Shown: positions 23,410 through 44,196 of the stretch, piece after piece
Layout: the number at the start of each line of letters is the position of its first letter
Position numbering within the stretch: the stretch's first letter is position 1
Source of the DNA: a virus
Strand: one strand, 5' to 3'
Virus genome (UHGV): UHGV-0116246
DNA: 45,113 nucleotides
Made by a program: the position numbers and the translations under genes
Notes under the pieces: model-generated
The model's database searches: none
What the model was told of the DNA's origin: nothing
What the model saw: only the letters and a program-made list of their open reading frames with translations

Positions 23410-24327
23410 ATGAAAGATATTGGAAATAAACAAATTAAAATAAATGCTATGGGGGTCCCTGTAGATGGAATAAGAGATGTTTATGCTGGAGCATTGGCTG
23501 ATGTAATAGAGGCTAAAAGAACACCATTAGAAGCAAGAGAAATAATTCCAAGAATTACAAATTTAGATGGAGTTGACATCTCAACAAGACACATAACTTA
23601 TACAAGATATACGTTTGATGGGAAAGCAGTTATAACTGATTTGAAACCTAAGACAGTACCAACTGTTGTTGGAGATGCAAAACTAGAAACATTCCCATTA
23701 AAATGGATTTCTGTTGGAGTAGAAACAGATGTAAATGAGTTAGATGATATAAGAACTGGTAAGGTATACCCATTAAATAGAACTGAAAAAGCTTTCAGAA
23801 TAGTAGCTGAAACAGAAAATAATTTTCTATTAAATGGATTTAAGGCTTTAGGAATAGAAGGTATCAATAATCAAACTGCTGGAATTAATACAGTAGCTGC
23901 TGGGGCTCAATGGGCAACCGCCACAGGATCACAAATTGTGGAAGATATTAGAAAAATGAAAGAAGCTATGGAAACTGGAAAAAAATTTGTTGCTAGAACT
24001 TTAAACTTGCCACAAAAATTAGACTTTATATTAGATAGACCATATACAGATAAAGATGGAAAAGAGATATCTGATGCTAAGTCTATAAGAGAAGTATTAG
24101 AGGGTAAAAAATACTTTGAAAGAATTAAATCTGTAATAGGGATAGATACTCCTATTGGATTGGATGATATTCCAAGCAATATGGGATTTGTTGCCGTACA
24201 AGATATTACAATTGGAGAGGAATACATGGAGGGTAGAAGCAGAATAACACCAATTGAAGAAAAAATATCTCCATTCGTAGTATTAGAGCCAGAAGCAATA
24301 GTAAAATTAACAGGAGCGACAGCATAG
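23410..24327 (+). CDS. Major capsid protein (DUF2184-like)
   Basis: 305 aa. Canonical position. Confidence 0.5.
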   Translation: MKDIGNKQIKINAMGVPVDGIRDVYAGALADVIEAKRTPLEAREIIPRITNLDGVDISTRHITYTRYTFDGKAVITDLKPKTVPTVVGDAKLETFPLKWISVGVETDVNELDDIRTGKVYPLNRTEKAFRIVAETENNFLLNGFKALGIEGINNQTAGINTVAAGAQWATATGSQIVEDIRKMKEAMETGKKFVARTLNLPQKLDFILDRPYTDKDGKEISDAKSIREVLEGKKYFERIKSVIGIDTPIGLDDIPSNMGFVAVQDITIGEEYMEGRSRITPIEEKISPFVVLEPEAIVKLTGATA

Positions 24328-28147: not shown

Positions 28148-28322
28148 GTTAGATGAAAAGGGCTGTATAGATTATGAAAGTTATAAATTAACTGATTTTG
28201 AATATATAGCCCATATAATAGCCTATCATTTTCACCTGAACCCTTGGGAAGTTCTAACATGGAATTGTGAGAAGTTATTCAAAACTTACAGTGTTATTCC
28301 TAAAAATAGAACAAAAAAATAA
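28125..28322 (+). other. +1-frame extension (66 open codons) of tail chaperone; candidate programmed frameshift (gpG/GT-like)
   Basis: Frame opens at 28125 and lacks any start codon. Overlaps chaperone end. Candidate slip sites: AAA-TTT-T at 28127-28133 or GTT-TAG-G at the stop. Confidence 0.4.
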
Positions 28323-28338
28323 GAAAATCTGGACATTG

Positions 28339-28362
28339 GCAATTGAATACTGAGGGATAAAA
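28339..28362. repeat. Left 24-bp inverted repeat (GCAATTGAATACTGAGGGATAAAA) bounding accessory cassette
   Basis: Perfect reverse complement of 32109-32132. Confidence 0.8.
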
Positions 28363-28410
28363 TAAGGAAGTAAACTTATTCATTTTTATTATACAAAAGG
28401 AGTGATGTTA

Positions 28411-28989
28411 ATGAGATTAAACCCTGATTGTATAAGAGATATACTAATTAGTTTTAATGATAAAATTGATTTAAGTATACCTTATATAGTAAAAGAGATA
28501 AACTGTAAAGATATTTGTGATAAGTATTCTTCTAAAGAACTCTGTTATCATATGAAGCAATGTTTATATCATGATTTTCTTACTGGAACAGACAAAGGAA
28601 ATTGTATTGAAGTAAAAGGAATTTCTCTAGTAGGTAATGATTTTTTAGCTTATTTTTATGATGAAAAAGATTGGATAGAAATCAATAAAATTGCTGATAA
28701 AGTAGGATCACGTTCTATAGAAACTTTAAAACATATATTCATTCTTAGAAAGATAAAAGAAACAGAAATGAAGAATAGCAAAGGAGGAAAAAAGATGGAA
28801 TACCATTTTTATGATGAAAATTTAGAAAGAAAAGTAGTAACCAAAGAAGAAAGAATAGAACATTTAAAAAATTTATCTAAAAAATTAAGAGAGCAATTAT
28901 TTGAAAAACCAAAAACATTGCTCCCTGACGAAGTAGAATACTTTATTTCTATTTTTAAAGCCGAATTAGAGCATTTGTATAAGAATTAA
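28411..28989 (+). CDS. Hypothetical protein (first gene in cassette)
   Basis: 192 aa from MRLNPDCIRDILISF. AAAAGGAG RBS. Confidence 0.45.
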   Translation: MRLNPDCIRDILISFNDKIDLSIPYIVKEINCKDICDKYSSKELCYHMKQCLYHDFLTGTDKGNCIEVKGISLVGNDFLAYFYDEKDWIEINKIADKVGSRSIETLKHIFILRKIKETEMKNSKGGKKMEYHFYDENLERKVVTKEERIEHLKNLSKKLREQLFEKPKTLLPDEVEYFISIFKAELEHLYKN

Positions 28990-29008
28990 CTCAAATGGAG
29001 GTGGCAAG

Positions 29009-29167
29009 ATGCCAAGAATAAACTTTAAAGAAATAGATGAAATTTCAGAAGAAATAATGAAACTCTTAGAAGAAAGAGGAATTAGATATGAAGAATTTCA
29101 AATGATAGTTGAGTTGTTAGTATTAAAAACTAAACACAAAGAAGATTACACTGTAGATAGGTGGTAG
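29009..29167 (+). CDS. Tiny ORF (52 aa)
   Basis: MPRINFKEIDEISEEIMKLLEERGIRYEEFQMIVELLVLKTKHKEDYTVDRW. GGAGGTG RBS. Confidence 0.3.
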   Translation: MPRINFKEIDEISEEIMKLLEERGIRYEEFQMIVELLVLKTKHKEDYTVDRW

Positions 29168-29179
29168 CAAAACTACCAC

Positions 29180-29374
29180 TTATCCTGAATATTTTTCAAT
29201 ACTAGAAATGAAAAGCTTATTTAAAAGCAATCCTTTTCCAGTATTTTCTTCTACAAGAATGAAATTATTATCAATTTCTTTAATAACTTTACAATAACAA
29301 GGTTTGATACTGTTTTGTTTTTCAAAGTAATAGATAATGACTTTTTCATCTTTTAGAAATTCTACCAAGTTCAT
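29180..29374 (-). CDS. Hypothetical small protein
   Basis: 64 aa. GGAGG RBS. Confidence 0.4.
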   Translation of the reverse strand: MNLVEFLKDEKVIIYYFEKQNSIKPCYCKVIKEIDNNFILVEENTGKGLLLNKLFISSIEKYSG

Positions 29375-29529
29375 ATTTTACCTCCTTGTTATAAAAATGA
29401 GTCGCATTATTATTATAACTTTTTGGAGGGCTAAAATCAAACTTGTATGATTGACAAATTGAATAATATCTTTAAATAGAAGATTTAAAAAACACAACTT
29501 CCCTTTCTCCAAAAAAAATAAAAAAAAGC

Positions 29530-29558
29530 TTGACTTTTTGGGCGTACTAATTTAATAT
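29530..29558 (+). promoter_or_regulatory. Cassette-internal promoter TTGACT-17-TAATAT
   Basis: Upstream of RHH/Rha genes. Confidence 0.45.
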
Positions 29559-29588
29559 TAGTGTAAGGACAAAAAGTGAGGTGATGGA

Positions 29589-29771
29589 ATGAGTCCAAGA
29601 ACTGGTAGACCAAAAGCAGATAATACCAGAAATAAAAAATTAAATATTAGGTTAAGACAAGATGAGTTAGAACTAATTCAGGAATGTGCTAATAAACTTA
29701 ATAAAACTAGAACAGATACGATTATGGAAGGTATTAAATTGCTAAAGGTAGAACTAGACAATAAAAAATAG
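29589..29771 (+). CDS. Ribbon-helix-helix (CopG-like) regulator
   Basis: RTGRPKADNTRNKKLNIRLRQDELELIQECANKLNKTRTDTIMEGIKLL. Confidence 0.55.
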   Translation: MSPRTGRPKADNTRNKKLNIRLRQDELELIQECANKLNKTRTDTIMEGIKLLKVELDNKK

Positions 29772-29881
29772 AGTGTTAATCCACCGACCAAGAATTCTTA
29801 ACACTCTACACACCAATCAGAGATTGATAAATCTATTATATCATTTTTTGATTGGAATATCAATAATTTGGAGATGATATT

Positions 29882-30601
29882 ATGGATGAAATATTAAATT
29901 TAAATTTAGAGTTCGATGAAAATATAGGATATTTTGTTAGTAGTAGAACTTTAGCCGTTGGATTAGGGAAAGAACATAAACATGTGCTTGAAAGCCTTGA
30001 TAACATTAGAAAAAATAATAGAGCCGAAATTTCGACCCTATTAATACAAAGCGAATATAAGGCAAAAAATGGTAAGGTGAATAGAGAATATAAACTCACA
30101 AAAGATGGATTTACTTTATATATGTTCCATATACAAGGCTTTACAGAATTTAAAATGGCATATATAAATAGATTTAATGAAATGGAAAGTTTTATCAAAG
30201 AAGCTCATACCAAGTTAAAAGAAATAAAAATTGATAAAAAGTCTGATTGGTTAATTAATAGAGTAAGAACCAGATTAGACCAAGCTGAATATTTAGAAAA
30301 CCAAATAGCATATCTATTTGAGAAATTAAATGAAATATATTCTAAAGCAGAAATAGAACTAGAAACAAAAACAAAACAGGTAACAAGTAATTTCTGGGAT
30401 TTTAAAACTCCTAGTGATTATGACCCTGCAAAAGAGAAATTACCAGTACTTTATGAAGTTGAAATAGAAAAGGAAAATCTAGAAGAAATGGAAAAACTTG
30501 GAATAAATAAAGATGATGCTTTAAATGACATTGTTGAAAATAAAACTTTAGAAAAAACAGTAAAAATTTTAGGTCAACAAAAACTTACAACTAAAGAATA
30601 A
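29882..30601 (+). CDS. Rha-family phage regulatory protein (second copy, antirepressor-like)
   Basis: YFVSSRTLAVGLGKEHKHVLESLDNI ... YKLTKDGFTLYMFHIQGFTEFKMAYINRFNEME matches Rha family. Confidence 0.6.
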   Translation: MDEILNLNLEFDENIGYFVSSRTLAVGLGKEHKHVLESLDNIRKNNRAEISTLLIQSEYKAKNGKVNREYKLTKDGFTLYMFHIQGFTEFKMAYINRFNEMESFIKEAHTKLKEIKIDKKSDWLINRVRTRLDQAEYLENQIAYLFEKLNEIYSKAEIELETKTKQVTSNFWDFKTPSDYDPAKEKLPVLYEVEIEKENLEEMEKLGINKDDALNDIVENKTLEKTVKILGQQKLTTKE

Positions 30602-30714
30602 AATCATTCCCCTAGTAGAATTACTGGGGGAATACAATTAATAAAACGACTTGACTTTTTAAAATTGTGAAGTAATAATATATTAGACTAAAATTTAAAA
30701 AGGAGAGATTTTAT

Positions 30715-31131
30715 ATGAAAAAATTAATTTTATTTATGGCTTTAGCTTCCATTTTAACAGGGTGCAATCCTATGAAACCTGATGAAATTATATCAGAAAT
30801 CAGCAACCCATTTAAAGAATATAAGGTGATAGAACCTGAAGTGGTTAAAATGTTAGAAGAAAGTATATTAGAAACTGAAATTGAAAATAAAGGTTTAGAA
30901 AAGATAGAAACATCAGCTCATGTTATAAGTTTAAAGAAAACTGGTAATTATGCAACAGGAGAAGTAAAAATATTAGGAAAAATAACTCCTGAAAAATTAG
31001 AAAAGATGAATGAAAAAAGAACTGAAAGAAGAAAAATAAATGGTTTGGTTTCATATGAATGTATTTATGAATATAGTTATACTACTGGTAAAATGATGTG
31101 GACTAGTAATTTTAAATTAAAATATGAATAA
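30715..31131 (+). CDS. Lipoprotein (signal peptide + lipobox LTGC)
   Basis: MKKLILFMALASILTGC. Confidence 0.6.
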   Translation: MKKLILFMALASILTGCNPMKPDEIISEISNPFKEYKVIEPEVVKMLEESILETEIENKGLEKIETSAHVISLKKTGNYATGEVKILGKITPEKLEKMNEKRTERRKINGLVSYECIYEYSYTTGKMMWTSNFKLKYE

Positions 31132-31142
31132 GGAGAGAGCTT

Positions 31143-31472
31143 ATGAGATTTAAAGTTAAATCGGATTTAAGTATTAGTGAAATGTTAATGTACATATTAG
31201 CAATAGTATTCGGCTTTGGTATTTTAGGATTCTTTATTTTTGCTATAATAGAAGTCGGAATTGGACAGAGAATATCAGAATTGTTTTTAATATTTTATGT
31301 AATTGTATTAATAGCATTAACAATATCTTATATTATAAAATTGGCTCTTAATAGTATAACCTTTGGAAGTTTAAAAGAAGAAACTAATATAGAAAAACTC
31401 TTAAAAGAAGTATTAGAAGAACTTAGAGAACTAAAAAATAGTCAAAATAAGGAGAGTTCATATGGGAAATGA
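31143..31472 (+). CDS. Small membrane protein (2 TM + C-terminal coiled coil)
   Basis: Hydrophobic stretches MLMYILAIVFGFGILGFFIFAII and LFLIFYVIVLIALTISYII. Confidence 0.5.
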   Translation: MRFKVKSDLSISEMLMYILAIVFGFGILGFFIFAIIEVGIGQRISELFLIFYVIVLIALTISYIIKLALNSITFGSLKEETNIEKLLKEVLEELRELKNSQNKESSYGK

Positions 31473-32091
31473 AGAATACAACGTTCTTAAATATATTCTT
31501 GGTGGGTTCATTGTCATTTTACTTATTCTCGGAAAAATCGTAATGAATATGACAAAAGATAATAATTCAAAAGTTTCTAAAGTTAATACAGACCCAATGA
31601 ATAACTATCGAAATAATAAATTCTATGATCTCAAAAATGGTGGAATATTTGAAACTTATGTAAAGATTGGAAATTATTTTAGATATGATAAGATTAATCA
31701 AAAGATAATGCTTATATATAGCTATCACAGGGCAGATAAAAAGAAATATGCTGTATATAAATTAAGTGACATTTTAGAATTTGAATATATTGAAAATGGA
31801 ACTTCCCAAGTTAAAGGTGGTTTAGGTAGAGCTTTAGTTGGTGGAGCATTGTTTGGTGGAGTCGGTGCTATTGTAGGAGGAATTACTGGAACAAGGAATA
31901 CAAAAAAAGTTATTAACGAAATGAAGATAAAATTTGTAATTAAAGGCGATATACCAATTGTAGATTATCTTAATTTAAAAAATATATCATCTGTAAAAAG
32001 TGACAGCCAGCAATACAAATTATACATCAAACAACTCAATGAAATATTAGCGATATTAAATTATGCAGAACCTAAAGAAAATATAAAATAA
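31462..32091 (+). CDS. Membrane protein with N-terminal TM and glycine-zipper segment (GGLGRALVGGALFGGVGAIVGGITG)
   Basis: 209 aa. Overlaps upstream gene by 11 nt (coupled). Confidence 0.5.
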   Translation: MGNEEYNVLKYILGGFIVILLILGKIVMNMTKDNNSKVSKVNTDPMNNYRNNKFYDLKNGGIFETYVKIGNYFRYDKINQKIMLIYSYHRADKKKYAVYKLSDILEFEYIENGTSQVKGGLGRALVGGALFGGVGAIVGGITGTRNTKKVINEMKIKFVIKGDIPIVDYLNLKNISSVKSDSQQYKLYIKQLNEILAILNYAEPKENIK

Positions 32092-32108: not shown

Positions 32109-32132
32109 TTTTATCCCTCAGTATTCAATTGC
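32109..32132. repeat. Right 24-bp inverted repeat (TTTTATCCCTCAGTATTCAATTGC) bounding accessory cassette
   Basis: Perfect reverse complement of 28339-28362. Its distal part plus CTGGGGG forms a hairpin followed by ATTTTTTT (terminator-like, 32115-32146). Confidence 0.8.
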
Positions 32133-32173
32133 TGGGGGATTTTTTTATACAAAAATTCAAGAAAGGAGGAGTA

Positions 32174-33982
32174 ATGTCAGGTAAAATTGCAGGATTATTT
32201 TATGAGGTTGATTATAAAGTTAATCAACAAGGGCTTAAAAGAGCAGAAACTGGAATAAAGCAAATCGGAGATAATGCTAAAGGAACTGTTAATCAAATTG
32301 GATTTTTAGATCAAGGAATGGGTAGTTTAATCGGAAAAGCTGCTGGGATAGTAAGTGTTGGATACGCTTTTAAAAAAACAACAGATTTAATAGGACAATC
32401 AGTTGTAGCTTATACAGAGTTCGATGATTCTTTAAGAAAAACAGGTTCTAAATTAAATTTAACTGATGTAGAAATGAAAAGCTTAGCCAACTCAACAAGA
32501 AGTGTAGCATTAGAATTTAATTCTACAGGTAAAGCGGTTTCAGATGCTCAAGAGTATTTAGCATTAGCAGGTTATAATTTAAAAGAAATTCAAGCAGCAA
32601 GTCCAACAGTTGTAGCAGCCCAAAGGGCTACTGGTGAATCTATGCAGCTTGTATCAGATATAGCGACAGATACAGCATCTTCTTATGGTTATATGGCTAA
32701 TGAACTTAATTTTGTAACAGATAGAATGGTATATACTACAACAGCTTTTAATACTAACTTTGCTCAAATGGGTGAAGCTATGAAATATGTTGCTCCAGTT
32801 GCAAAAAATGCAGGTCTAGAGTTTGCTGATTTAAATGCTTACATAGGAGTTGCAGCTAACAGTGGTATAAAAGCAAGTCAAGCAGGGACAGCATTAAGAG
32901 CTATGTTTTTAAGAATACAAGCACCATCAAAAATGGCGGAAAAACAATTAAAAAAATACAATATTCAGTTATATGATAATAAAGGTAAATTCATTGGTGT
33001 AAATAATGCTTTAGCTTTAATGGAAAAGAAAATGGGAACAATGACAGAAAAACAAAAAGCATTTTTTATGCAACAAGTTTTTGGAACAGAAGCAATGTCT
33101 ACAGCTAATATTATATTTAAAGAAGGAATTGATAATATAATAGCTTATGGTGATGCAATAGACGGAGCGACAGGAAAAACAGAAGCTATGGCTAAGTATA
33201 TGGATGCTGGAATAGGTGGAATGTTACGTTCTCTTGATAGTCAAAAAGATGCTATAAAATTGACATTAGGTGAAGCATTTGAGCCTGTAGCCTATGAATT
33301 TGTTAGAATTTTAAGAGATGGAGCTAAAGATTTTAATGAAGTTTTAGAAAATTCAGAAGGGCTAAACAATATAATTAGAGTTGCAATGGGACTGACTGAA
33401 GTTATTGAAGGTATTAAATGGGTAGGACAAAATATTGATTATATAGCAGAAGGTTTAAATTTAGGACCTACATTTAAAGTTGGGAAAGGAATAGCTAATC
33501 TTTGGTGGAAAACTATGAATCCTTTAGGAAGTACTGCAAGTTTTTTGTCAAAAAGAGGAGAGAGAAGATTAATAGAACAAGGTATAGATAGAAGATGGTT
33601 GAGAGAAGATAAAGGTTTGTTGGATAAAAGTGCTACTGAAATGGACAAATATATTGCTGAAAACTTTAATCTGTTTGGAACTTTTTCAGAAACTCCTCTT
33701 AAAGAAAATGAAACTTATTTAAAGATAGGAGATCAAGAAACTAAAATAGATAAAGACCTTTTATCACAACTTACAGCAACAGAAAGAGCAACTTATTTAA
33801 ATCAAACAGAAACTCAAAAAGCTTTAAGATTTAATCCAACAATAACTTTAAATATAAATGGTATTACAAATTTGAATAATGAAGCTGTAGAAAATTTAAA
33901 AGAATCAGTTGCGGAGATTGTAAGAAAAGAATTTGAAAAACAATGGGCTTTAGAAAGAGTTCTAATTGGAGGTGATTATTGA
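32174..33982 (+). CDS. Tail tape measure protein (TP901-family core)
   Basis: Start at MSGKIAG with AAGGAGGAG RBS. ...ASQAGTALRAMFLRIQAPS... core motif, Ala/Gly-rich helical. Confidence 0.8.
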   Translation: MSGKIAGLFYEVDYKVNQQGLKRAETGIKQIGDNAKGTVNQIGFLDQGMGSLIGKAAGIVSVGYAFKKTTDLIGQSVVAYTEFDDSLRKTGSKLNLTDVEMKSLANSTRSVALEFNSTGKAVSDAQEYLALAGYNLKEIQAASPTVVAAQRATGESMQLVSDIATDTASSYGYMANELNFVTDRMVYTTTAFNTNFAQMGEAMKYVAPVAKNAGLEFADLNAYIGVAANSGIKASQAGTALRAMFLRIQAPSKMAEKQLKKYNIQLYDNKGKFIGVNNALALMEKKMGTMTEKQKAFFMQQVFGTEAMSTANIIFKEGIDNIIAYGDAIDGATGKTEAMAKYMDAGIGGMLRSLDSQKDAIKLTLGEAFEPVAYEFVRILRDGAKDFNEVLENSEGLNNIIRVAMGLTEVIEGIKWVGQNIDYIAEGLNLGPTFKVGKGIANLWWKTMNPLGSTASFLSKRGERRLIEQGIDRRWLREDKGLLDKSATEMDKYIAENFNLFGTFSETPLKENETYLKIGDQETKIDKDLLSQLTATERATYLNQTETQKALRFNPTITLNINGITNLNNEAVENLKESVAEIVRKEFEKQWALERVLIGGDY

Positions 33983-39952: not shown

Positions 39953-40390
39953 GTGAAAATATCTGAAAAAGGGATTAATTTTTTAATTCAGGAAGAAGGA
40001 GAAAGATTAAAGGCGTATAAGTGTGCTGCAGGAGTTTGGACAATAGGGGTAGGACATACAGGACCAGATGTAAGAGAAGGAATGGTAATAACAAAAGAAA
40101 AATCAAGAGAACTTTTAAAACTTGATTTAAGTCGTTTTGAAAAAGCTATTGACACTTATATCAAAGTTCCGCTTGAACAATATCAATTTGATGCTTTGGT
40201 AAGCTTAGCTTTTAATATAGGAGTTGGAAACTTTTCTAAAAGTACTCTAGTAAAAAAGATAAATGCAAATGCTCCTATTGAGGAAATAGAATTTCAATTT
40301 AAGCAGTGGAGACTAGCAGGCGGAAAACCTATATTACTACCTAGAAGGGAAAGAGAAGCTAAATTATATAGAGGAGGAAAGTATGAATAA
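39953..40390 (+). CDS. Endolysin, GH24 phage lysozyme (catalytic domain only)
   Basis: EGERLKAYKCAAGVWTIGVGHTGPDV: catalytic Glu and the TIGxGH motif of T4/lambda-type lysozymes. No cell-wall-binding domain. Confidence 0.8.
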   Translation: MKISEKGINFLIQEEGERLKAYKCAAGVWTIGVGHTGPDVREGMVITKEKSRELLKLDLSRFEKAIDTYIKVPLEQYQFDALVSLAFNIGVGNFSKSTLVKKINANAPIEEIEFQFKQWRLAGGKPILLPRREREAKLYRGGKYE

Positions 40391-40871
40391 GGAGACAATA
40401 TTTTTAATAATAACAATTATCCTAGTTATGGTGGGGATATATTACTTATATAAGTATAAAAAAGAAAGTTTATGGGTAATAGCCTGTTATGTGGTAACAA
40501 GAGCAGAGGAGGAATTTATATCAGGACAAGGGAAACAAAAACTTGAGTATGCTATAAAAGAATTCAAAAAAAGAATCCCTAGATATCTATCTTGGCTTAT
40601 ATCAGAAAATTTTATTATAAATTTAATTGAAGATGTCCTGGAAGGACTACAAGAAACATTTAAAAGCAGCAAAGAAAAACAGCTAACAGTTGTAAATAAA
40701 GTTCTTGAAACAGTTACTAACGGAGCACAACAAGATGTATTAAGAGTTACAAAGAAAATGGAGCAAGATATAAATAGTAAGGGATATGTAGAAGGATACT
40801 TAGAAGGAAGAACAGATTTAAAAGGTAACAATAATATAGTTGGAGGAATAAAAGCAGGAATAAAACTATAA
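40383..40871 (+). CDS. Membrane-anchored lysis-associated protein (holin-like, N-terminal TM)
   Basis: IFLIITIILVMVGIYYLY TM then 130-aa soluble part. Overlaps lysozyme stop. Confidence 0.35.
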   Translation: MNKETIFLIITIILVMVGIYYLYKYKKESLWVIACYVVTRAEEEFISGQGKQKLEYAIKEFKKRIPRYLSWLISENFIINLIEDVLEGLQETFKSSKEKQLTVVNKVLETVTNGAQQDVLRVTKKMEQDINSKGYVEGYLEGRTDLKGNNNIVGGIKAGIKL

Positions 40872-40920
40872 TATTATAACAACAATCTGGGATACTGCCA
40901 TTTCCCAGTAAGGAGACCGA

Positions 40921-41220
40921 ATGACTTTGAAGAAAATAAAAGAAAATATGATATCTATTATTTTGAGTTTAACTCTAGGTTTTACTTGGTCCTATATAAT
41001 AGGATTAGGAAAGGAACAAAAGATAGTAAATACAGAAATAGAAATAATAAAATTAAAGATAGTAAATCACAGGGAAGTGATAGATAAATTAGAAAAAAGT
41101 AGAGAAAATTTAAGTAATTACTATGTTACAAGAATAGAGTTTAACAGAATAACAGAAGAACAAGCAAAAAAACTGGATAGAATAGAAACAAAGCTAGATA
41201 AAATAATAGAAAATAAATAA
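40921..41220 (+). CDS. TM + coiled-coil protein (holin or spanin-like)
   Basis: MISIILSLTLGFTWSYIIGLG then coiled coil. Confidence 0.3.
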   Translation: MTLKKIKENMISIILSLTLGFTWSYIIGLGKEQKIVNTEIEIIKLKIVNHREVIDKLEKSRENLSNYYVTRIEFNRITEEQAKKLDRIETKLDKIIENK

Positions 41221-41237
41221 ACTCCAGGAGGGAGCTG

Positions 41238-41462
41238 ATGAAACAAAAAGAATATATAAAAATTAGCTTCAACACGACCAAAGAAATAGCCGAAGAATTA
41301 GAAAGATTAAAAGATACATCTGAAAGCTTTGGGCTTACACAGACCTACATTATAAATGAAGCTTTAAGAAAGTATCTAGATGAATATAAAAATGGTAAAA
41401 AAGGAGTGCTGGAACAGGCAGTTGAAGTCCTTAACAGTATTTCAAAAAGCATAGAAAAATAG
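41238..41462 (+). CDS. Ribbon-helix-helix protein (CopG/antitoxin-like)
   Basis: KISFNTTKEIAEELERLKDTSESFGLTQTYIINEALRKYL. Last gene of lysis operon. Confidence 0.5.
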   Translation: MKQKEYIKISFNTTKEIAEELERLKDTSESFGLTQTYIINEALRKYLDEYKNGKKGVLEQAVEVLNSISKSIEK

Positions 41463-41465
41463 AAA

Positions 41466-41490
41466 AGAGGGATTAACTCCCTCTTTTTTA
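41466..41490 (+). terminator. Rho-independent terminator
   Basis: AGAGGGATTAACTCCCTCT + TTTTTT. Confidence 0.6.
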
Positions 41491-41502
41491 ATATCCATAA
41501 AA

Positions 41503-41522
41503 TAAAAAAGCCCCTAAGGGCT
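41503..41522 (-). terminator. Rho-independent terminator for MazF-like gene
   Basis: AGCCCCTAAGGGCT stem with T-run on minus strand. Confidence 0.55.
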
Positions 41523-41537
41523 TTGGTTATAAATTAT

Positions 41538-41894
41538 TTATTCGTCATCAAATATTTTTATTGTTTTTTTTATGCTATCAATTAGTTTTTGTTTATCTTC
41601 ATTGTCTAAATCATAAATTTTATTTCCGAAAATTCTGCTTCTATGAATTTCTCTCATTTTTCTAACTTTAACAAAAGCACTTTGACAAGTTGGATTTGTT
41701 TGATATTTATTACAATCTATTGTGAAACCACCTCTATATTTTGTACCTTTCTTTTTACTTGTTATAGGGGCAGCTAATAAAGTTTTATCTTTGCAAGAAA
41801 GTTCACTTAATATTACAGCGTAGTGTTTTCCATTAAACTCTCCACCTATATTTATTTTGAAATCTACAAGATACACACCTAAAATATCAAACAT
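41538..41894 (-). CDS. MazF/PemK/Kid-family endoribonuclease toxin-like protein
   Basis: Start at MFDILG after AGGAGG. VYLVDFKINIGGEFNGKHYAVILSEL...LLAAPITSKKKG matches the MazF/PemK fold signature. Confidence 0.55.
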   Translation of the reverse strand: MFDILGVYLVDFKINIGGEFNGKHYAVILSELSCKDKTLLAAPITSKKKGTKYRGGFTIDCNKYQTNPTCQSAFVKVRKMREIHRSRIFGNKIYDLDNEDKQKLIDSIKKTIKIFDDE

Positions 41895-42194
41895 CAAGCC
41901 TCCTAAAAAATTAAGCACATCATTTCTGATGTGCCTGCATGTCCTTAACGAATAAGGCTTTTTTTCCTCCGTGATCCCCGTATCCTTAAACTAAGATAGA
42001 AAGGCTTTTAGGTTACTTAATGGTAACATATTTATATGACTTTGTCAATAAAAAGTTGAACTTTTACAACCAAATAAATATATTATAAGGTATTATTTAG
42101 GTATATTTTTAGATTTATTTTGCTATAAAAGATAAAATATAGTTATCAAAGTCAAAGGTGAAAAATGGCAGAAATAAATCTTTGAGGTGAGAAA

Positions 42195-42845
42195 ATGAAT
42201 ATTGAAAAAATGGCTTGTCCACATTGTGGAAATGATAACATTAACGAAATGATTTTTAATTCTGTGGACTATATGAACCCACAAAACAAGCAGAATCCAA
42301 TTTTAAATGGTTATAGTTATGAATGGAAACCTAAAATTCCTATAGGCTTTCATTTTAAATGTAGCAAGTGTGGAAAGGATACCTTTATAATTCCAGAGAA
42401 TGGAAAGTATGGAAGTATAGAATGGGGAGAAGATATTCCACAGCAAGTGATTTTTACACCTGTATATAAACAACCTGAATTTTCGGCAACAGCATTTATT
42501 ATGTATAACGAAGAGAGAAAGGGCGGACATTTAGACCAGGTAGTAACAACTAACCAAAATACCATTTTATCTCTTATAACTAGAGAAGTTATAACAGAAG
42601 ATGGAAGTTGGAAAGTAATTGACAAAAAAATGTATGAACTATTAAAAAGCAAAGGGTTTAAGGAGGTAGGCTATGAATCCAATGATGATGATGTTACAAA
42701 AAGCATTAGGGCCACAAGCAGCACAGATGATGAAACAATGGCAGCAAATGACACCGCAGCAACAACAGGAAATGATGCAAAAGGTACAGCAAATGACACC
42801 AGAGCAGAGAAACAACATTTTACAACAAAGGGGAATAGACCCTAA
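42195..42845 (+). CDS. Zinc-ribbon protein (CPHCG...CSKCG); C-terminal ~55 codons overlap next gene and are probably not real
   Basis: First ~160 aa look protein-like. Tail is out-of-frame read of the Gln-rich gene. Confidence 0.35.
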   Translation: MNIEKMACPHCGNDNINEMIFNSVDYMNPQNKQNPILNGYSYEWKPKIPIGFHFKCSKCGKDTFIIPENGKYGSIEWGEDIPQQVIFTPVYKQPEFSATAFIMYNEERKGGHLDQVVTTNQNTILSLITREVITEDGSWKVIDKKMYELLKSKGFKEVGYESNDDDVTKSIRATSSTDDETMAANDTAATTGNDAKGTANDTRAEKQHFTTKGNRP

Positions 42846-42924
42846 TAGTATACAGCCAAGTAGTCCAGTAGGACCAGGAGCAACGCCAACAGTTCAAGGC
42901 GGAGGTAGAAAATTTAATTACTAG
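42673..42924 (+). CDS. Gln/Met-rich small protein
   Basis: AAGGAGGTAGGCTATG RBS. MNPMMMMLQKALGPQAAQMMKQWQQMTPQQQQEMMQKVQQMTPEQRNNILQQ. Confidence 0.4.
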   Translation: MNPMMMMLQKALGPQAAQMMKQWQQMTPQQQQEMMQKVQQMTPEQRNNILQQRGIDPNSIQPSSPVGPGATPTVQGGGRKFNY

Positions 42925-42976
42925 GTAATAACACGGGGGTGTTTTACAAATAAAAAAACAATAGGAGGTATAAACT

Positions 42977-43678
42977 ATGGCAGGATTTAGCACAGAGGGC
43001 GTAATGCCTATGATGCCAACTGGAATGGCTGGCGGAGACGGTTTCGGTTTTGGAGCTGGTGGAGGTTGGATTGTTTTCCTAATTATAGCGATGATGTTTG
43101 GTTGGGGTAGAAATGGATTCGGAGCTGGTGGAGCTGGTGGATTTGCAGGTGGAGAACTAATGGCAGATCAATTTGCTTTACAAGACCTTAAAAACGGACA
43201 TAGAGCTATAGAGTCTGGAATAACAGGATTGGGAAATGGAATCTGTGATTCTACTTATGCAATGGCCCAACAAAACAGTCAAACAAGAGAACTAATAGGT
43301 TTAGGATTTGCTAATCTAAATTCAAACCTAGATAGCTGCTGCTGCACTACTAACAGAAATATAGATTCTGTTAGATATGAAAATGCTAAAAACACATGTG
43401 ATATAATCACAAATGCTAACATGAACACTAGAGATTTAATAGCTGCTGGAAATGCAAATACACAAAGAATCGTGGATATGATGACAGCTAATACTATTCA
43501 GGAACTTAGAGACAGAAACCAAGATTTAACACTTTCTGCAACTCTACAAGCTCAATCTAATAACATTATAAATGCTATTAGACCTACACCAGTACCAGCA
43601 TACCAAAGCTGTAACCCATGGGGAACACCAGTATTTGGTAATGGCTGTGGTGGATTTAACGGTTGTGGAAATATCTAG
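42977..43678 (+). CDS. Gly-rich membrane protein with YjcZ-like N-terminus and Cys-rich C-terminus
   Basis: GFGFGAGGGWIVFLIIAMMFGWG resembles YjcZ-type small sporulation proteins. C-terminal multiple Cys. Confidence 0.4.
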   Translation: MAGFSTEGVMPMMPTGMAGGDGFGFGAGGGWIVFLIIAMMFGWGRNGFGAGGAGGFAGGELMADQFALQDLKNGHRAIESGITGLGNGICDSTYAMAQQNSQTRELIGLGFANLNSNLDSCCCTTNRNIDSVRYENAKNTCDIITNANMNTRDLIAAGNANTQRIVDMMTANTIQELRDRNQDLTLSATLQAQSNNIINAIRPTPVPAYQSCNPWGTPVFGNGCGGFNGCGNI

Positions 43679-43752
43679 TTAATTATTCCGACTAATTGTC
43701 GTGACTTTAAGGTGGGATAATTCCCACCTTTTTAATTAAAGGAGGTAAAAAT

Positions 43753-44196
43753 ATGAATTGCAATTTAAATGCTAGTTGTAGATGTAATAGATGCAGACAT
43801 CTAATAACTGTAACAACAGCAACAATAACAGGAGGAAAACTCGTATTAAATGTACAGCCTAGCCAATCTTTTAACAATAATGAAAATGTATGTTTATTAA
43901 TAGCCACTACTCTTCCAAGCTCTACAACACCTATTCCAGTAGTAATAACTATAGGAAGTTCTACAACACAGATACCACTAATTAATAAATGTGGAAATAA
44001 TGTGTATAGCGATCAGATAAGAAATAGGAGAATATATCCAACAAGATTTAAAACAGATGTTACTTCTTTAAACTATGTAGGAACTTGTAATTTGCCTTGT
44101 ACGAGCTTTGTATTCCCTGTGTATACTCCAACTACACCTACAGAAACAACAGCTGTAGAAACAAGTATAACTAAAAAAGGAGAGGTGACTAAATAA
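43753..44196 (+). CDS. Cys/Thr-rich protein
   Basis: 147 aa. CNLNASCRCNRCRHL N-terminus, Thr/Pro-rich C-terminus. Confidence 0.35.
   Translation: MNCNLNASCRCNRCRHLITVTTATITGGKLVLNVQPSQSFNNNENVCLLIATTLPSSTTPIPVVITIGSSTTQIPLINKCGNNVYSDQIRNRRIYPTRFKTDVTSLNYVGTCNLPCTSFVFPVYTPTTPTETTAVETSITKKGEVTK

Follow-up and report, generated by a model that had tools for sequence, protein, structure and literature searches.

Independently reassorting envelope-protein genes, including a PH_gly_zipper gene, form an accessory unit in the tail operon of a temperate myophage

The virus genome UHGV-0116246, the entire 45,113-nt stretch of which is referred to here as the window, carries immediately upstream of its tape-measure protein (TMP) gene three consecutive genes, p1, p2 and p3, encoding, respectively, a lipoprotein, a predicted inner-membrane protein with two transmembrane (TM) segments and a member of the PH_gly_zipper family (Table 1). 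In this phage, the three genes make up one promoter-to-terminator unit with the layout of a classical moron; comparison of related loci shows that they are independently reassorting cassettes, which happen to be stacked here. It is highly probable that the anatomy is as described below and that the trio is not a module. The best explanation, which we hold tentatively, is that p1, p2 and p3 form an accessory moron unit of separate envelope proteins that act against rival phages. The general kind is already known: prophage morons coding for envelope proteins have been described before, and p3 falls within a named Pfam and PHROG family.

All three are genuine genes rather than chance open reading frames (ORFs), because intact homologs have been recovered from numerous independent metagenome contigs (in 15 clusters for p1, 12 clusters for p2 and 249 proteins for p3). 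They are tightly coupled in position, with a gap of 11 nt between p1 and p2 and an overlap of 11 nt between p2 and p3. An initial annotation of this DNA had placed the three ORFs at exactly these positions and had noted the tight coupling, and much of its description is borne out by the present analysis: the LTGC lipobox of p1 is present, p2 shows two hydrophobic segments in Kyte-Doolittle plots, and p3 has both the hydrophobic N-terminal helix and the exact zipper string. The upstream genes for a ribbon-helix-helix (RHH) regulator and a Rha antirepressor were likewise found, with RHH-type Pfam matches to the 60-aa regulator that are weak only, and the repeats said to bound the cassette proved to be a perfect 20-bp inverted repeat. 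The assignment to moron-type accessory envelope genes also stands, the three showing no homology to housekeeping or virion proteins.

Table 1. Positions of the trio, its regulatory elements and the adjoining genes in the window
Feature	Position (nt)	Strand	Description
Inverted repeat, left arm	28339-28358	+	GCAATTGAATACTGAGGGAT; untranslated gap after the tail chaperone gene; unstructured alone
Repressor-like (RHH-type) 60-aa regulator	29589-29771	+	phrog_876 'transcriptional repressor', E 4.5e-13
Rha-family regulator/antirepressor	29882-30601	+	PF09669 Phage_pRha, E 4.7e-18; phrog_518
GC-rich terminator-like hairpin	30606-30633	+	Immediately 3' of the Rha stop codon; conserved; -18.2 kcal/mol, z -5.5
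Promoter-like element	30651-30679	+	TTGACT-17-AATAAT (or TTGACT-16-TAATAA; TTGACT-16-TAAAAT in relatives)
p1	30715-31131	+	138-aa lipoprotein; lipobox LTGC at nt 30754-30765, disordered linker, cystatin/NTF2-like alpha+beta domain
p2	31143-31472	+	109-aa predicted inner-membrane protein; 2 TM, charged C-terminal helix
p3	31462-32091	+	209-aa PH_gly_zipper protein (PF27000/phrog_888)
Inverted repeat, right arm	32113-32132	-	5' stem plus loop of the terminator before the TMP gene
Intrinsic terminator	32113-32147	+	11-bp stem (32113-32140), then U7; -17.2 kcal/mol, z -5.85; closes the p1-p2-p3 unit
Tape-measure protein (TMP)	32175-33982	+	PF10145, E 1.4e-39; start after the ribosome-binding site (RBS) AAAGGAGGAG

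The claim that did not survive comparison is that the trio forms a three-gene module. By means of exact-protein look-ups and chaperone-based scans, the latter of which added only 4 and 6 loci from IMG/VR and JGI, respectively, we gathered 24 related hotspots (loci denoted by L numbers) and recorded the content of the slot that holds the trio in the window. This slot is occupied by p2 alone at 4 loci, by p1 and p2 at 10, by SNIPE (or another gene) followed by p3 and p2 at 8, by p3 alone at a single locus (L001, where p3 is 100% identical to that of the window) and by all three genes at only two, the window and L013. Across the census, p2 is present at 23 loci, p1 at 12 and p3 at 11. At all 12 of its loci p1 is followed by p2, and it never occurs without it; among the 11 loci with p3, this gene precedes p2 at 8, follows it at 2 and lacks it at 1. 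The initial annotation took p1, p2 and p3 for a candidate co-operating, three-component exclusion or abortive-infection system, and the close spacing of the genes, the single promoter and terminator that they share in the window, and the recurrence of the same trio in L013 are in keeping with that model. Against it, however, stand not only the restriction of the trio to 2 of the 24 loci and the position of p3 upstream, rather than downstream, of p2 at 8 loci but also the existence of 100%-identical p3 genes in other settings, namely, directly after Rha with neither p1 nor p2 (L001) and behind a decayed SNIPE gene (L002); moreover, PH_gly_zipper genes stand alone in unrelated phages. The alleles are reshuffled as well. 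Thus, 99%-identical p1 alleles precede p2 alleles of 98%, 49% or 45% identity, and identical p1 and p3 alleles are paired with p2 membrane cores that are only ~26% identical. Between the window and L013, DNA identity is ~100% over p1, p3 and both flanks and falls to ~50-60% only across nt ~31158-31390, that is, across the two TM helices of p2.

For p3, the initial annotation recognized no named system, which turned out to be wrong. The precomputed annotation lists PF27000 (PH_gly_zipper) for the exact p3 sequence and for all of its relatives, and phrog_888 matches residues 54-201 with an E value of 4.3e-24. The PHROG matches of p3 are all to PHROGs of unknown function, and a PDB sequence search with the family profile returned nothing meaningful. 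The AlphaFold2 (AF2) prediction consists of an N-terminal helix (residues 4-28), which corresponds to a TM anchor at residues ~8-30 (nt ~31483-31551), a PH-like sandwich (residues 53-171) and a C-terminal helix (residues 183-201), right after which the protein ends. The glycine zipper, the exact string GGLGRALVGGALFGGVGAIVGGITG at residues 119-143 (nt 31816-31890), is inserted within the PH-like domain, as the PF27000 fold prescribes; AF2 cannot place it (pLDDT 38-56), whereas the surrounding PH fold is predicted with confidence. All of the family-invariant residues lie in the zipper, where they form a continuous (G/A)xxx(G/A) series running from G120 to G140, and p3 shares every one of the invariant zipper positions with the family (G120, G122, A124, G127, G128, L130, G133, G135, A136, G139, G140 and T142).

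The usual architecture of the family comprises a DUF4428 zinc ribbon, PH_gly_zipper and SHOCT, whereas in p3 and its near relatives a TM helix replaces the ribbon. SHOCT (PF09851) is missing from p3: the SHOCT columns of the alignment are empty in p3 and its closest relatives, and no match is listed for the family entries P0001 (p3 itself) to P0012. Because positive charges follow the TM helix of p3 and typical relatives are without signal peptide or TM segment, the PH domain would be cytoplasmic, and as the two halves of this domain have to share one side of the membrane, the zipper would at rest more likely be re-entrant or peripheral than membrane-spanning. Other members of PF27000/PHROG 888 include gp21 of phiCDHM1 and the pneumococcal 'LIM domain protein' IPP36_00002, both products of phage accessory genes, like p3; most members of the family come from Firmicutes, whereas the host of p3 is apparently a Gram-negative Fusobacterium.

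Every PH_gly_zipper context sampled by exact look-ups was that of a phage or prophage. In Enterocloster-type myophages, the gene is a lone insertion, the order being tube, PH_gly_zipper, tail assembly chaperone and TMP. The gene for gp21 of phiCDHM1 is flanked by the TMP gene and, on its other side, by an XkdN-like chaperone gene, small ORFs and a Bro-N gene, so that this phage and the window share the same order of chaperone, small ORFs, antirepressor-like gene, PH_gly_zipper gene, terminator and TMP gene; a terminator directly 3' of the family gene is found in the Enterocloster lineage as well as in that of phiCDHM1. In the pneumococcal prophage IPP36, the family gene lies between repressor and integrase, and in Sporosarcina, it is located 4 bases downstream of a cI-like helix-turn-helix (HTH) gene, near an integrase fragment, while other copies follow a holin-amidase cassette or stand at a prophage end. 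An unbiased scan of IMG/VR (114 contigs, 28 clusters at 90% identity), in which the two genes on each side were taken as neighbors and the neighbor proteins matching each family were counted, recovered TMP families downstream (8), LysM, typical of the post-TMP gene (7), XkdN-type chaperones (5) and Gp15 proteins (PF06854; 3), along with HTH_3-type regulators (8), Peptidase_M78 (ImmA/IrrE; 4 upstream and 2 downstream) and integrases (4). Two slots dominate for the family, one immediately upstream of the TMP gene and the other in the lysogeny module (repressor/integrase), where the sie/ltp-type genes of Gram-positive phages are classically located.

In sister phages, the slot that is taken by the trio in the window holds a complete SNIPE homolog of 436 aa, with an N-terminal TM helix, DUF4041 and a T5orf172/GIY-YIG domain (L003, 6674-7984; also in L004-L008, L043, L047 and L051), located 16 bp upstream of a p3 homolog and ~1 kb upstream of the phage's own TMP gene. 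In L002 (97-1406), the SNIPE gene is split into three ORFs, but p3 is undamaged. SNIPE cuts phage DNA as it is being injected and makes contact with tape-measure proteins, and SNIPE homologs without a TM helix carry PH or DUF4428 N-terminal modules that have been read as membrane-targeting adaptors (Nature 2026, PMC13190303); SHOCT-like domains are predicted inner-leaflet anchors (PMC11237479). Domain composition and gene neighborhoods together suggest that PH_gly_zipper proteins reside on the cytoplasmic side of the membrane and keep company with conflict-related genes that prophages express. SNIPE resembles p3 in its island slot and N-terminal TM anchor, and PH_gly_zipper proteins in general in the PH/DUF4428 domain types; p3, however, contains neither a nuclease nor DUF4041, and the window has no SNIPE, the link being one of adjacency and domain types rather than of functional homology. 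We also considered p3 as an in-trans anchor for TM-less SNIPE and rejected this role, given that the phage SNIPE has an N-terminal TM helix of its own.

The hydrophobic segments of p2 (Kyte-Doolittle >1.6) lie around residues 9-45 and 38-74, and the protein would adopt an N-in/C-in topology in the inner membrane. It has no family match of weight in Pfam and none in PHROG at E<=0.01, and it is confined to this phage lineage. The TM core (~nt 31158-31390) is an exchangeable allelic cassette that comes in four or more discrete types, with 26-38% identity between types, and, judging from this pattern, p2 appears to behave as a determinant of specificity on which diversifying or frequency-dependent selection operates. 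Its conserved ends are conserved at synonymous sites, too, and the 3' end runs into the invariant terminator block. The view of the C-terminal helix as a protein-level constraint is weakened by this, its codons being near-invariant at synonymous sites within a conserved DNA block. Co-evolution of p2 with the TMP of the same phage was examined and rejected: the correlation with the adjacent N-terminal half of TMP (r 0.1-0.5) is what linkage predicts, and that with the variable C-terminal half is ~0. A role as principal holin was set aside as improbable on position and presence/absence. The protein has a holin-like layout of 2 TM and a charged tail; its gene is not adjacent to the endolysin gene, which is flanked by other membrane-protein genes; it is also absent from L001 and has no holin match in Pfam or PHROG.

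The N terminus of p1, MKKLILFMALASILTGC, contains the lipobox LTGC in agreement with the lipoprotein signal pattern [LVI][ASTVI][GAS]C. The lipobox cysteine, Cys17, is invariant across 26 homologs, including members that are only 35-48% identical, and the LPAM_1 match in Pfam is weak. The mature part consists of a disordered linker followed by a folded 120-aa domain, predicted to be of the cystatin/NTF2-like alpha+beta type, for which fold comparison indicated a generic periplasmic binding fold, with no functional match. Like p2, the p1 family is confined to this phage lineage. Since the host is likely a Gram-negative Fusobacterium (see below), p1 would be a periplasmic lipoprotein. Its identification as a Cor-like exclusion lipoprotein was rejected, because the sole Cor match (phrog_1119, E 4.7e-4) covers residues 1-24, that is, the signal peptide, and the mature domain showed no sequence or fold homology to the Cor, Llp and Ltp families. 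Spanin and u-spanin assignments for p1 and p2 were discarded as well: the lysis cassette (39953-41220) is ~8 kb away and p1 is missing from 12 of the 24 relatives. For p1 in particular, an o-spanin or u-spanin identity is contradicted by the folded 120-aa domain, which is not short and proline-rich, and by the lack of a C-terminal TM segment.

A block of ~110 bp upstream of the slot, which includes the hairpin, TTGACT, TAAAAT and the RBS, is conserved in 9 related loci, with invariant -35/-10 positions, and is kept whichever gene comes next, be it p1, p2, p3 or SNIPE. In the window, AAAGGAGAG lies between the promoter-like element and the p1 start codon, and a similar promoter-like element, CTTGACTTTTT, is found upstream of the gene for the 60-aa regulator. 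At the other end, the block composed of the terminator and the TMP RBS is invariant in relatives, regardless of the preceding gene. The conserved RBS and the alignment with relatives assign the TMP start to the ATG at 32175, not to the TTG at 32129 of the mechanically called ORF, which falls inside the terminator. The unit thus combines the hallmarks of a moron, namely, a conserved promoter-like block, with promoter activity as a prediction, a terminator and presence/absence polymorphism. The whole variable island is bracketed by the 20-bp perfect inverted repeat (0 expected by chance), the right arm of which overlaps the terminator. Both arms are exact in 17 related loci despite the differing contents of the islands, and 12 further loci have one exact arm (in some cases on short contigs; L018 has a single-base difference in its other arm). 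The possibility that the repeat is an invertible switch was rejected, as the island genes have the same orientation in all loci.

The window is a phage genome of ~29% GC, the products of which include a serine recombinase, a DnaB-type helicase and a lysozyme lacking a cell-wall-binding domain, and its contractile-tail module has the order sheath, tube, 114-aa chaperone, 3.9-kb island and TMP. The phage is a temperate myophage. Its major capsid protein (23410-24327) shares a 90%-identity cluster with WP_008698234.1 of Fusobacterium ulcerans 12-1B, and, judged by this match, the host is most likely a Gram-negative Fusobacterium. A scan of GTDB genomes with the sheath protein yielded no close relative, and the INPHARED collection contained no related phage, the best sheath match being to a Bacillus phage at 24% identity. 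Neither megablast of the cassette nor tblastn of p3 against 50,697 phage records gave a match; typical-architecture members of the PH_gly_zipper family matched 33-47 phage records, and the miss therefore probably results from divergence and low-complexity masking, not from absence of the family.

Several other parts of the genome deserve a brief description. The rest of the island (28402-30601; compared across L001-L021) is mosaic, too, with combinations that differ across relatives and draw on DUF2513, KilA-N, HicA/HicB, YjcQ, DUF1883, pairs of HTH repressors, and Rha or P22_AR_N antirepressors, and the island as a whole is a moron or defence hotspot inside the tail operon. Enterocloster prophages, in which an IS110 element and AntA have also landed, contain an analogous hotspot, as does C. 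difficile phage phiCDHM1 (gp18-gp21). After the 114-aa chaperone gene, ~260 bp are without a called gene (28148-28322), here and in all relatives; an A-run and a stop codon close this stretch immediately ahead of the left repeat arm, and its appearance is that of a frameshift extension in a G/GT-type chaperone pair. In the lysis region (39953-41918), the gene for the lysozyme, which has 145 aa and lacks a cell-wall-binding domain, is succeeded by those for two membrane proteins with N-terminal anchors, of 162 aa and 99 aa (the latter helix-rich), and there is no obvious o-spanin lipoprotein. Beyond these two lie a 74-aa ORF and, on the opposite strand, a 126-aa ORF that occupies the position of the PemK_toxin gene in L001; by virtue of this arrangement, the two may form an antitoxin/toxin pair. 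Finally, a locally GC-richer stretch (42195-44196; 36.5% versus ~29%) contains a cluster of unusual ORFs, namely, a Cys-pair protein with a low-complexity tail, a Q/M-rich 83-aa ORF, a Gly/Met/Cys-rich 233-aa protein with a hydrophobic segment and a Cys/Thr-rich 147-aa protein. The two of these ORFs that were searched had no Pfam match, and the cluster is possibly further cargo of foreign origin.

An anti-phage function of the unit is, in our view, somewhat probable. Under the favored explanation, each gene would be autonomous in action, p1 being always accompanied by p2, and expression of the unit in the lysogen could be driven by its own promoter; its products would then make the envelope refractory to incoming phages. 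Located in the periplasm or the outer membrane, p1 would interfere with the receptor or with periplasmic transit in the manner of Cor, Llp and Ltp or of TraT; p2 would be an allele-specific inner-membrane entry-exclusion factor comparable to HK97 gp15, SieA, Imm or TraS; and p3, a membrane-tethered PH-zipper protein, would act at or just after genome injection. Within the anti-phage reading, entry exclusion is a possibility that we hold with appreciable doubt, and abortive infection, with p3 acting through a zipper-pore mechanism, is an unlikely one. The other cargo of the sister-phage islands is of the defence type, comprising full-length SNIPE, HicAB and regulatory proteins of the Rha/KilA-N/P22_AR_N type.

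The proposed activities can be compared with known systems. Cor of phi80 and N15 and Llp of T5 mask receptors, the F-like plasmids possess an exclusion pair made up of the TraT lipoprotein and the inner-membrane protein TraS, and HK97 gp15 is a moron located among tail genes. HK97 gp15, P22 SieA and T4 Imm are small prophage-encoded inner-membrane entry blockers to which p2 and p3 are comparable in size and membrane location, although they share no sequence similarity with them. SieA is reported to be both necessary and sufficient for SieA exclusion (PMC10883804), and Ltp of TP-J34 is reported to block tape-measure-dependent DNA entry (PMC3952083). As in the Cor/Llp/Ltp group and the TraT/TraS pair, p1 is a small lipoprotein, here predicted to be co-transcribed with an inner-membrane protein; unlike Ltp, it has a cystatin/NTF2-like roll in place of helix-turn-helix repeats, and the p1 alleles do not co-vary with p2.

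Several observations weigh against the proposed role in exclusion. Among the PADLOC-DB v2 models, p1 and p3 have no match at E <= 0.1, and p2 has only a 14-bit match, to PDC-M18B. The unit is located inside the late tail operon, a position with which late expression and a role benefiting the phage itself are compatible. The p2 alleles do not co-vary with the TMP of the phage, and the presence of p2 in 23 of the 24 relatives is unusual for dispensable cargo. The assignment of the host has the single capsid protein cluster as its sole basis and only link to a cultured host. Finally, promoter-like matches in this AT-rich region number 33 against 28.5 expected from shuffles and are not enriched, so that it is conservation that carries the prediction of the promoter.

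A broader, joint reading, which we consider possible but unlikely, is that PF27000 is a widespread but unrecognized single-gene prophage defence family and that the 20-bp repeat gates the island. The PF27000 proteins would sit at the cytoplasmic face of the membrane by means of a TM helix or of a zinc ribbon plus SHOCT and would intercept injection, either by plugging the tape-measure-dependent entry channel or through zipper-driven membrane depolarization; if so, interception of injection would explain the recurrence of the family beside TMP, SNIPE and repressor-integrase slots. The repeat would serve as a long-range antiterminator, the left arm in late transcripts pairing with the 5' half of the terminator, such that late transcripts would read through into the TMP gene, whereas lysogenic moron transcripts would stop at the terminator.

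Among the alternatives to exclusion, the best surviving one, still improbable, casts p3 as a single-protein abortive-infection effector, in which the PH domain and the anchor hold the zipper latent until a cue from infection triggers oligomerization of zippers into a pore, depolarization of the inner membrane and death of the infected cell. This scenario would account for the fact that the only invariant residues of the family form the 21-residue (G/A)xxx(G/A) zipper and for the contrast between the low pLDDT of this segment and the confident PH fold around it, and the N-terminal modules, which vary within the family (zinc ribbons, TM helix, TM2 domain), look like sensors or adaptors attached to a constant effector. 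Glycine zippers are reported to be the toxic element of the depolarizing toxins TelE and EsxX (PMC10434224 and PMC12744356), and PdpSau, a prophage protein with a membrane anchor that by itself brings about abortive infection with changed membrane permeability, provides a precedent (PMC10127798). PdpSau and AbiP resemble p3 in being single prophage proteins with an N-terminal TM helix and a cytoplasmic domain; in PdpSau, however, this domain is of the OB-fold/AbiP-like type rather than PH-like, and there is no glycine zipper. As a homolog of p3, PdpSau was rejected on account of this domain, and the Staphylococcus phage matches cover only the SHOCT tail. The scenario is further weakened by the lack of homology of p3 to PdpSau, AbiP or any PADLOC Abi model and by the consideration that a membrane-spanning zipper would split the predicted PH fold; placement beside TMP genes, SNIPE and the repressor-integrase slot is just as compatible with entry exclusion.

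Somewhat less probable still is that the trio has no part in phage defence and consists of lysogenic-conversion factors that aid the Fusobacterium host in the manner of lambda Bor and Lom; resistance to serum or bile, adhesion, immunity to bacteriocins and buffering of envelope stress are conceivable examples. A layout of promoter, gene and terminator is typical of classical morons, the periplasmic binding fold of p1 is generic and without a functional match, and the discrete allele types of a small 2-TM protein would suit p2 for such a role, given that bacteriocin immunity proteins are likewise small 2-TM proteins with discrete allele types. SHOCT and PH modules have, in addition, been linked to envelope-stress systems (PMC11237479). 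Conversion is harder to reconcile, however, with the defence- or conflict-related nature of the remaining island cargo in sister phages and with the almost wholly phage-borne distribution of PH_gly_zipper, which recurs at repressor-integrase and tape-measure slots.

The trio might instead serve the lytic cycle of the phage itself, with p2 as an accessory holin or antiholin, p1 as a spanin-like protein, and p2 and p3 in TMP handling or genome delivery. All three genes are on the same strand inside the late tail operon, p2 has a generic holin layout and is near-universal in the lineage, and PH_gly_zipper genes are repeatedly located directly upstream of TMP genes, in three myophage lineages. Yet, the phage has a separate lysis cassette with membrane-protein genes beside the endolysin gene, p1 is absent from half of the relatives and its folded domain is unlike the short proline-rich o-spanins, L001 lacks p2, more than half of the relatives lack p3, which in other phages is found in the lysogeny module, and a strong terminator parts the unit from the TMP gene, all of which makes a lytic role very unlikely. 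Least probable of all is the three-component model, already largely refuted by the distribution of the genes.

The points of note are, then, PF27000 as a candidate defence family, the allelic cassettes of p2 and the terminator-overlapping repeat, which perhaps gates read-through into the TMP gene. Should the proposed function prove wrong, the region would be ordinary prophage cargo. If it is correct, this lineage, in which the same slot contains p2, p1+p2, p3, SNIPE+p3 or all three genes, would provide a natural test bed for the dissection of prophage exclusion at the envelope level in Fusobacterium, a genus of clinical relevance for which hardly any phage-defence biology exists. The swapping of the p2 TM core as a discrete cassette between otherwise identical phages would be as expected of a specificity determinant in an arms race. 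More generally, PF27000, with hundreds of members across the prophages of Firmicutes and Fusobacterium, would gain a concrete functional hypothesis.

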